A DNA stretch of 64,000 bases from a virus (IMGVR_UViG_2698536476_000008); one strand, 5' to 3'. Positions 23,485-24,321 are shown, counted from the stretch's first letter. Program-made: numbers and translations. The notes: generated by a model from the sequence alone, not told the origin.

Positions 23485-23504
23485 AAAAAGCCCCGTTCAG
23501 GGGC
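23485..23504 (-). terminator. Rho-independent terminator after the T5orf172-like gene
   Basis: GCCCCGTTCAGGGGC hairpin with T-run on minus strand directly after the stop at 23512. Confidence 0.5.
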
Positions 23505-23511
23505 ATCAGTG

Positions 23512-24321
23512 TTATTTGCTAAGAGCAGCGAATAATCGTTCGAAATCGATAGTATCTATAGCACGCGTAAGCGCCGGAAGTTCAGCCTCAAAGTACCCGT
23601 GTCGATCGTAAAAGAAGGGACCGAAGAGCGAGGCATGTTGGATTCTACTTCGCCCCAGCCCGGACACACAGTTAAGCCCATTACCGGCTAAAAGGCTAAA
23701 AAACTTCTCTGGATTATCGTGGTAAAGCTGGGAATCAATGGTGGCGGTTAACTCTTCCATAGGGAAGCACACCCGCCCTGTATCCCAGGGATATTTAGTC
23801 CGAAGCATAAACATTGCTTTCAGCAATTCACATTGAGCGCGGATCGCGTCCGGTTCATAGCCAGATATGGAGACATAAGCCACGTCCCTCATTCCTGCGT
23901 CATCTTTGAAAGTCACGATAGAAGTAACATCCAGCTCTTTTTCGAAAGAGCAAGCAGCATCTACTGGACGCTGAAGCAAATCATTCGACTTAATGCGCTC
24001 GAGAATCCCTCCCCACATATCATTTAGATATTCGATATGAGCCAAAACCTTATCAAGACACTCTCGTGTAAACCATTCAGTATGCCCGCCACCGACGCTT
24101 TTCTCCCACGGCGCATTCCAGGGGAAAAAGGTTGCGTGTAAAGCCCGCTCAAGATTAACCATTGCCAAACGTGTACCACGATAGACCCGTGAAAGCGCAA
24201 AATCGGGACTCACTTGTAGCCCTTTAAACCGTGCCAATGGACCACATGAAATGCCGATTTTAAAAGTATCTCCGTTCTCTGGCACCAGAACGTAGAGGTA
24301 GTGTTGTTTCTCTTCTTGCAT
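23512..24321 (-). CDS. T5orf172/GIY-YIG-like domain protein (269 aa)
   Basis: N-terminal YLYVLVPENGDTFKIGIS...HTEWF pattern; own terminator; located between incA-like iterons and parA. Confidence 0.55.
   Translation of the reverse strand: MQEEKQHYLYVLVPENGDTFKIGISCGPLARFKGLQVSPDFALSRVYRGTRLAMVNLERALHATFFPWNAPWEKSVGGGHTEWFTRECLDKVLAHIEYLNDMWGGILERIKSNDLLQRPVDAACSFEKELDVTSIVTFKDDAGMRDVAYVSISGYEPDAIRAQCELLKAMFMLRTKYPWDTGRVCFPMEELTATIDSQLYHDNPEKFFSLLAGNGLNCVSGLGRSRIQHASLFGPFFYDRHGYFEAELPALTRAIDTIDFERLFAALSK

Follow-up and report, generated by a model that had tools for sequence, protein, structure and literature searches.

A T5orf172/GIY-YIG nuclease-like gene at the edge of an exchangeable replicon cassette in P1-like phage-plasmids, a candidate homing-type endonuclease

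We analyzed a 64,000-nucleotide stretch of viral DNA (IMGVR_UViG_2698536476_000008; hereafter the window), which belongs to a P1-like phage-plasmid of the SJ46/RCS47 ("p0111" replicon) type, with a focus on an 810-bp gene lying between its replication and partition genes. A 1.4-kb query around this gene recovered phages SJ46, JL22, phi456 and RCS47 at 98.6-99.5% identity, and a 2.4-kb module was matched at 100% by the Escherichia coli plasmid NZ_CP148417. Based on what can be observed directly, namely its domain content, family-invariant residues, position, distribution, cassette breakpoints, dispensability and decay, we tentatively propose, with a confidence that falls somewhat short of even, that the gene, located at the par-proximal edge of an exchangeable replicon cassette, codes for a freestanding homing-type site-specific endonuclease, to which a nuclease activity, a target and gene conversion would have to be attributed. 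The features of the locus are as follows:

22147-23445, minus strand: parA with the par promoter/operator, the P1-type flank in which homology resumes
23446-25704: exchanged replicon cassette, the block without P1 homology in a blastn comparison of the window with P1
23480-23504, minus strand: intrinsic-terminator-like hairpin and T-run directly 3' of the nuclease-like gene
23512-24321, minus strand: intact nuclease-like gene of 269 amino acids from the open reading frame (ORF) listing, with an ATG start and the stop codon counted
23515-23880, minus strand: codons 148-269 of this gene, a fast-evolving domain modeled as winged-helix-like and presumed to bind DNA
23881-24009, minus strand: codons 105-147, a low-confidence linker (predicted local distance difference test score, pLDDT, 51-65) whose length differs among the four clades of the family
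24010-24321, minus strand: codons 1-104, the T5orf172/GIY-YIG catalytic-type domain
24357-24611: incA-like iteron array between the repA stop codon and the ATG of the gene, with two iterons in one orientation and at least four inverted
24614-25498, minus strand: p0111-type repA of the Rep_3 family, 294 amino acids, with Pfam Rep3_C and Rep3_N matches
25580-25678: five origin (incC-like) iterons with a spacing of 21-22 bp

The ORF and iteron coordinates bear out the original prediction, made from the sequence alone, that the gene sits between parA with its promoter and the incA-like iterons: the nearest incA-like iteron (TCGCGCATAGTCAA, 24370-24357) has its end 35 bp 5' of the ATG, while the par promoter region (23426-23398) and parA (22147-23343) both lie downstream. 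The terminator that had been assigned to the gene as its own is likewise present on the minus strand from 23504 to 23480 as a G+C-rich hairpin (GCCCCTGAACGGGGC, then TTTTTTG) that begins 8 bases past the stop codon. A scan found no terminator after the homologous genes of two related elements described below, L003 and L008, and the terminator is specific to the p0111 clade of E. coli and Salmonella.

The predicted T5orf172/GIY-YIG-like N-terminus was recovered by Pfam above the gathering score in an intact ORF of 269 residues (T5orf172, PF10544; residues 8-85, E 6.9e-6, 26.9 bits against a cut-off of 20), alongside weaker matches to MUG113 and Tox-URI2 of the same GIY-YIG clan. The gene has been annotated before and mentioned as "unknown gp57", with no published function: PGAP names the product a "GIY-YIG nuclease family protein", in PHROGs the whole protein falls in phrog_2876 ("unknown function"), and an NCBIfam scan of the protein found nothing. 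Databases thus already contain the gene, as well as its association with the p0111 replicon, and both have been mentioned descriptively. New here are the restriction of the family to rep-par junctions of P1-like elements with three types of Rep, the finding from two independent comparisons that the gene lies at the edge of the exchanged cassette, the inactivation of about one sixth of its copies and, as a structural prediction, a second domain that appears to be a sequence-orphan winged helix resembling the WH1 domain of Rep proteins.

In an alignment of 61 relatives Y10, K21, G23, R31, E58 and E82 are invariant, with D40, S44, L61, H62, G79, T81, W83 and F84 nearly so, and all these residues are kept in the four clades of the family, whose members are only 25-44% identical to each other and share the start methionine. 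The conserved motif set of the superfamily, comprising a first-strand tyrosine, the K/Y-I-G motif, an arginine and the metal-binding glutamate of "TEWF", is present; the last of these is the counterpart of a residue essential in the ICP1 protein Odn (E180A; PMC8263062). An AlphaFold2 model built on the same alignment (mean pLDDT 80.4, and hence usable) divides the protein into an N-terminal domain (1-104) with the GIY-YIG alpha/beta fold, a poorly defined linker (105-147) and a C-terminal domain (148-269).

We then compared the locus with that of P1 (NC_005856), which likewise has five origin iterons, repA and a two-orientation incA-type array, followed by the par promoter (Ppar), parA and parB. 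The statement in the original prediction that incA abuts the par promoter in P1 was correct, given that about 190 bp with no annotated gene separate Ppar from incA iteron 1, and a search of this spacer detected no relic of the gene; the gene is absent from the P1 position and, as shown below, from IncY plasmids with P7-type par. However, the gene had also been thought to be set in an otherwise conserved plasmid-maintenance core, and this does not hold, for repA and both iteron sets are replaced as well. Homology to P1 (99.4% nucleotide identity over 20001-23445) ends 66 bp past the stop codon of the gene and resumes only at 25705 (96% nucleotide identity), between the origin iterons and the GATC/DnaA part of oriR. 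The intervening block, whose counterpart in P1 is 61316-62815, holds the origin iterons, repA, the incA iterons and the nuclease-like gene. Within it the RepA proteins are 42% identical and the iterons differ (TTGACTATACGCGA in the window versus GATGTGTGCTGGAGGGA in P1), whereas ParA and ParB are 99.7% and 100% identical. As judged from this alignment, the gene forms one end of a replicon cassette that has been swapped and that is of the known p0111 type, rather than being a solitary insertion; the notion of an insertion into the P1 replicon was dropped because the entire cassette differs from P1. The limits of the swap between IncY and p0111 types are precise, one just upstream of Ppar and the other at the point in the origin just described, so that a foreign RepA with its iterons is served by a DnaA box and Dam sites of P1 type.

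A second comparison is provided by L003 and L008, Salmonella-type P1-like elements with 94-99% identical backbones (ParA 99.7%, ParB 98% and gp23 99.5% identity), which form a natural "isogenic" pair for studying cassette exchange. Their sole differing block (L003 8831-11019 versus L008 6656-8944) again comprises the origin iterons, rep, the incA iterons and the nuclease-like gene. The Rep of L003 is of the p0111 type (84% identical to that of the window, with the same iterons), that of L008 is of the IncY type (83% identical to P1 RepA, with P1-type iterons), and the products of their nuclease-like genes are just 28% identical. A further element, L010, combines a third Rep type with its own variant of the gene, and the iteron layout of the window recurs in L003, L008 and P1. 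Thus, the gene lies at the edge of the recombined segment in both comparisons, at 23445/25705 in the window and at 8830/11020 in L003 versus 6655/8945 in L008. When L008 is aligned with P1, the match covers oriR, repA and incA, picks up again at Ppar and is missing exactly over the gene, which by this alignment is a clean presence/absence difference within the IncY type. Presence or absence at one locus, as is typical of homing-type genes, recurs more widely: the gene is present in p0111-type elements, L003, L008 and L010, and absent from P1, from IncY plasmids with P7-type par, where no gene was found at the incA-par position, and from the rep_cluster_2164 family of phage-plasmids. Moreover, the L008 and L010 genes share 62% identity in their N-terminal domains (75.8% at the nucleotide level over 231 bp), although the Reps of the two elements are 43% identical and cannot be aligned as DNA, which implies that the gene has moved, at least in part, independently of rep.

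Two further observations concern the exchange of these modules. In many IncY plasmids, exemplified by NZ_KX518745.1 and NZ_CP021681.1, homology to P1 ends exactly at the outermost incA iteron (position 4318 of the P1 locus), past which lie P7-type parA and parB (401 and 321 amino acids); the spacer between incA and Ppar is therefore also a breakpoint for exchange of the par cassette. In the rep_cluster_2164 phage-plasmids CP042620.1 and NZ_CP085065.1, a Rep 85% identical to that of the window is accompanied by the same iteron sequence and an incA-like array, with a tail gene directly following, and the p0111-type replicon is therefore common to two phage-plasmid families.

The phyletic distribution of the gene was examined at several depths. 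At 93% identity or above it is found in about 400 PLSDB plasmids, and 392 carry the p0111-type RepA at 99% identity or above; a scan of genome contigs gave one close copy only, and one of viral contigs only copies that are 91-100% identical. The window itself has an intact copy that matches the commonest allele exactly. Among 5.8 billion protein clusters, a word-indexed search returned a single distant relative, P0004 (44% identity). Two more, P0009 and P0011, came from an exhaustive hidden Markov model (HMM) scan of 1.84 billion cluster representatives, which stand for about 15 billion proteins; this makes three other full-length relatives in all, with about 150 further proteins matching the N-terminal domain alone. 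All three are encoded between rep and parA of diverged P1-like elements, namely L003, L008/L009 from Salmonella enterica, and L010 from a faecal metagenome, and each adjoins a different or diverged Rep. When genes of the P0009 or P0011 type were sought in PLSDB, only the N-terminal domain of p0111-type copies matched. Truncated forms also exist in the databases (P0002, P0003, P0005-P0008). The 41-residue N-terminal extension of P0004 (L003 10001-10123) is an artefact of translation through the iterons, as betrayed by a repeated "AYSQH", and its true start is the methionine that aligns with M1 of the window protein.

GIY-YIG and T5orf172 domains are found among defence proteins, and the variable regions of phage-plasmids carry defence cargo. 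One might accordingly view the gene as cargo at a permissive spot between other genes, coding for a nuclease of anti-phage defence or superinfection exclusion. A pointer in this direction is that P0013, a relative of the N-terminal domain, is encoded in a chromosomal island along with Mrr_cat, WYL/WCX and Hypoth_Ymh genes. The protein itself, however, matches none of the 5027 PADLOC models at E <= 1, it has no partner gene, and its full-length relatives occur at a single locus in a single type of element instead of being dispersed over defence islands, quite apart from the frequent nonsense alleles described next. Hence, of the original suggestion of a nuclease, a homing-type element or a defence gene, it is the nuclease and homing parts that the evidence favors, whereas a role in defence finds no positive support and seems to us improbable.

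Across 44 p0111-type copies the ratio of nonsynonymous to synonymous polymorphism (pN/pS) is 0.31 for the gene; the corresponding values are 0.02 (rep), 0.00 (parA) and 0.05 (parB). Premature stops were found in seven of the 44 full-length copies and involve three independent codons: S112* occurs in five contigs, among them a viral contig of 97,897 bp, and Q228* and W68* in one contig each, the former in that of SJ46. With a further copy that is interrupted after nucleotide 294, inactivated copies amount to 8 of 45 (18%) and reflect at least four independent events (the loci concerned are L029, which is SJ46, L033, L034, L036-L038, L049 and L052). Stops and truncated forms of this kind are the degenerate alleles to be expected of a homing gene. 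Truncation by an ars insertion is seen in hybrid IncFIB/IncN plasmids, which keep only the 3' part of the gene beside an arsenic-resistance (ars) region; in the large plasmids NZ_AP027761.1 and NZ_CP019262.1 a P1 par module and the 3' 168 codons are joined to this region as the fossil of a P1-like element in a conventional plasmid. From the pN/pS values, the nonsense and truncated copies and the gene-less rep_cluster_2164 replicon, we conclude that the gene is dispensable for the replicon, weakly constrained and often decaying. Relaxed constraint and repeated inactivation could also be read to mean that it is a functionless remnant, an old selfish gene drifting to loss whose window copy is presently inactive. 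That, too, we hold to be a poor prospect, as the window copy is the intact, commonest allele, a pN/pS of 0.31 is well under 1, and the invariant nuclease residues have been retained across the strongly diverged clades.

The expression of the gene bears on a further possibility. It has the same orientation as repA, from which it is separated only by RepA-binding iterons, and a sigma-70-like scan of the window found no promoter-like site from the repA stop codon to the ATG; the corresponding interval of L003 has one weak sigma-70-like match. Transcription therefore probably reads through from the autoregulated repA promoter across the iterons, with the terminator shielding Ppar. We may speculate that expression would be highest at low RepA occupancy, for instance just after entry into a new cell. 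A promoter-like site does occur on the plus strand at 24581-24608 (TAGTCA-16-TATAGT), made of two iterons beside the repA stop codon; it is a match to the consensus only and aims into repA, in antisense.

Such probable co-transcription with repA, together with a position between repA/incA and Ppar kept in four clades, covariation with the Rep type, a pN/pS below 1 and the precedent of domesticated relatives of T5orf172 homing genes, such as CapR (PMC8096241), would suit a domesticated replicon or partition accessory. A protein of this kind would bind the incA iterons, RepA or the par promoter and tune copy number, handcuffing or rep/par transcription, using the nuclease fold for nicking or for DNA binding only. 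Several facts make such a role hardly probable. P1 and all IncY plasmids replicate and partition without the gene, the same replicon type lacks it in the rep_cluster_2164 phage-plasmids, and the copies in phage SJ46 and the 97,897-bp viral contig are among those inactivated; its pN/pS exceeds those of rep and parB 6-15-fold or more, while parA is almost devoid of nonsynonymous change, and the residues diagnostic of a nuclease are retained. An essential component of the replicon was discarded as an explanation in view of the gene-less replicons and the nonsense alleles.

The C-terminal domain has no recognizable relatives by sequence. In the model it displays the winged-helix order of elements with extra strands and a helix, and Foldseek retrieved RepE54 (probability 0.96) and 6h24 (probability 0.89) with this part of the model, for which the alignment offers only four informative sequences; BFVD yielded one COG5527 replication initiator among many T5orf172 matches. 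The fold is therefore predicted to be closest to the WH1 domains of iteron initiators. Sequence methods do not reproduce this relationship: hhalign of the domain against a Rep alignment gave a probability of 0.2%, BLASTP against the Reps of the family gave E > 1, a PDB profile search for a Rep origin of the domain was negative, and Pfam found neither Rep3_N nor Rep3_C in the protein, which has only one winged-helix-like domain. Given this and the four informative sequences, we treat the likeness to Rep WH1 as a lead and not as homology. The domain also diverges about twice as fast as its partner (between the window and L003, 63.5% identity for the N-terminal and 32% for the C-terminal domain), and as this happens despite the same iterons and 84% identical Reps, it is not constrained as a reader of those iterons. 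The overall architecture, a nuclease domain with a separate domain that would by its modeled fold bind DNA, is that of a homing gene.

This domain is at the heart of the main rival to the homing reading, whereby the gene would be a weapon against other replicons, comparable to what Odn of phage ICP1 is against the PLE satellite, with the Rep-WH1-mimicking domain steering the nuclease to the iterons or origin of a rival or docking on the rival RepA via a WH1-WH1 contact, so that the competitor is destroyed in a form of active incompatibility. The structural matches to RepE54 and the COG5527 initiator speak for it, as does the fact that the gene adjoins the iterons and changes whenever the Rep type changes. 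Odn itself is a precedent: it joins a T5orf172 nuclease to a domain derived from RepA_N and has been shown to cut the iterons of the PLE origin (Barth et al. 2021, PMC8263062). Both cases share a T5orf172 nuclease and a conflict of related replicons with swapped rep/ori modules, and here too the second domain may, by its modeled fold, resemble the DNA-binding domain of an initiator. Yet the DNA-binding domain of Odn is recognizably similar in sequence to the PLE RepA_N domain (PMC8263062), whereas here the putative resemblance to a Rep_3-type WH1 is confined to the predicted fold, the sequence comparisons with initiators having been negative throughout, cleavage is presumed, and the gene resides inside the replicon cassette itself. 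The divergence of the C-terminal domains of the window and L003 over identical iterons, and the frequency of nonsense alleles, which fit poorly with a weapon under strong selection, likewise speak against it, and we consider it unlikely overall. A bolder version, in which a replicon-linked "incompatibility weapon", aimed at the iterons or the RepA of rival P1-family replicons, would on arrival of a p0111-type phage-plasmid destroy or convert a resident IncY-type one and so drive cassette replacement in natural populations, as the first plasmid-borne counterpart of ICP1 Odn, appears to us less likely still.

In contrast, the homing reading is favored because it accommodates the two-domain layout, the conserved residues, the fast-evolving specificity domain, the intergenic position between essential modules, the sporadic presence, the location at the edge of exchange, the partial independence from the neighboring gene, and the relaxed selection with its nonsense alleles. 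A study of ICP1-like phages lists the same traits for T5orf172 homing genes, which it places at "boundaries of genetic exchange" (PMC10448857). The next relative of the N-terminal domain, P0012, is encoded in a phage contig adjoining two HNH_3 genes. We envisage that two related P1-like elements would meet in one cell, that the nuclease would cut the allelic rep-par junction of the rival, and that the break would be repaired from the nuclease-bearing genome via the GATC/DnaA part of oriR at one end and, at the other, the par promoter/parA, which are conserved; the nuclease gene would thereby be copied and the adjacent rep/iteron cassette co-converted. Such cutting and co-conversion would explain the exchange of IncY and p0111 cassettes with breakpoints that hug the gene.

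Several considerations weigh against this proposal. Cleavage, the target site and gene conversion are all steps that we infer. The gene is essentially fixed within the p0111 clade of about 400 plasmids, and presence or absence is seen only between cassette types, so that physical linkage within a cassette swapped by ordinary homologous recombination would give these breakpoints as well. Cassette exchange could also be driven, without a nuclease, by selection for the compatibility of co-resident P1-like plasmids, with the gene as a passenger. The pN/pS of 0.31 and the intact state of about 82% of the copies point to some constraint, and none would be needed for a fixed gene that is purely selfish. 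The known T5orf172 homing genes of ICP1 have the opposite domain order and zinc-finger DNA-binding domains (PMC10448857), and the shape of the C-terminal domain on which a DNA-binding role is premised derives, as noted, from few sequences.

The freestanding GIY-YIG endonucleases of T-even phages (I-TevI and SegA-G) consist of an N-terminal GIY-YIG-type domain of about 100 residues, a linker and a C-terminal DNA-binding domain, amounting to about 250 amino acids, and lie between conserved genes, sporadically among related genomes and at the boundaries of exchanged segments (marker exclusion). The gene studied here shares these traits, and differs in belonging to the T5orf172 subfamily with "KIG" for "YIG", in having a putative winged-helix C-terminal domain without sequence relatives, in that its homing is a proposal, and in that its host is the plasmid-maintenance module of a phage-plasmid rather than a lytic phage genome. 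With the T5orf172 homing genes of ICP1-like vibriophages (Barth, Dunham & Seed 2023, PMC10448857) it has in common the T5orf172 domain, the location beside essential genes and at boundaries of genetic exchange, variable presence, and stop-codon or truncated alleles. In those genes, however, the nuclease domain is C-terminal and 87% carry CapR, DUF723 or DUF4397 zinc-finger DNA-binding domains (PMC10448857), whereas here it is N-terminal and the second domain is modeled as winged-helix-like, without conserved cysteine pairs.

P1-like phage-plasmids often carry resistance genes in E. coli and Salmonella; their replicon is of either the IncY or the p0111 type, and these cassettes are exchanged on near-identical backbones. 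A nuclease gene that marks the cassette edge in every lineage bearing it would offer a concrete mechanism for this exchange, be it cleavage with gene conversion or the killing of rivals, and if the proposal is right, the idea of nuclease genes at the boundaries of genetic exchange would extend from lytic phages to plasmid maintenance modules. Should it be only a decaying selfish gene, it would still be a useful marker of cassette ancestry, of limited wider importance.

Beyond the comparison presented here, pSvP1 (MN510446) has been reported with "2 orfs inserted between repA and parA". Finally, among the BFVD matches are phage proteins of similar length, A0A1C9LWB4 (270 amino acids), I3UL81 (261 amino acids) and A0A8F8SLT7 (257 amino acids), which align over 185-261 columns with a high root-mean-square deviation; the combination of an N-terminal T5orf172 domain with a further C-terminal domain may therefore represent a wider, as yet unnamed class of phage proteins.
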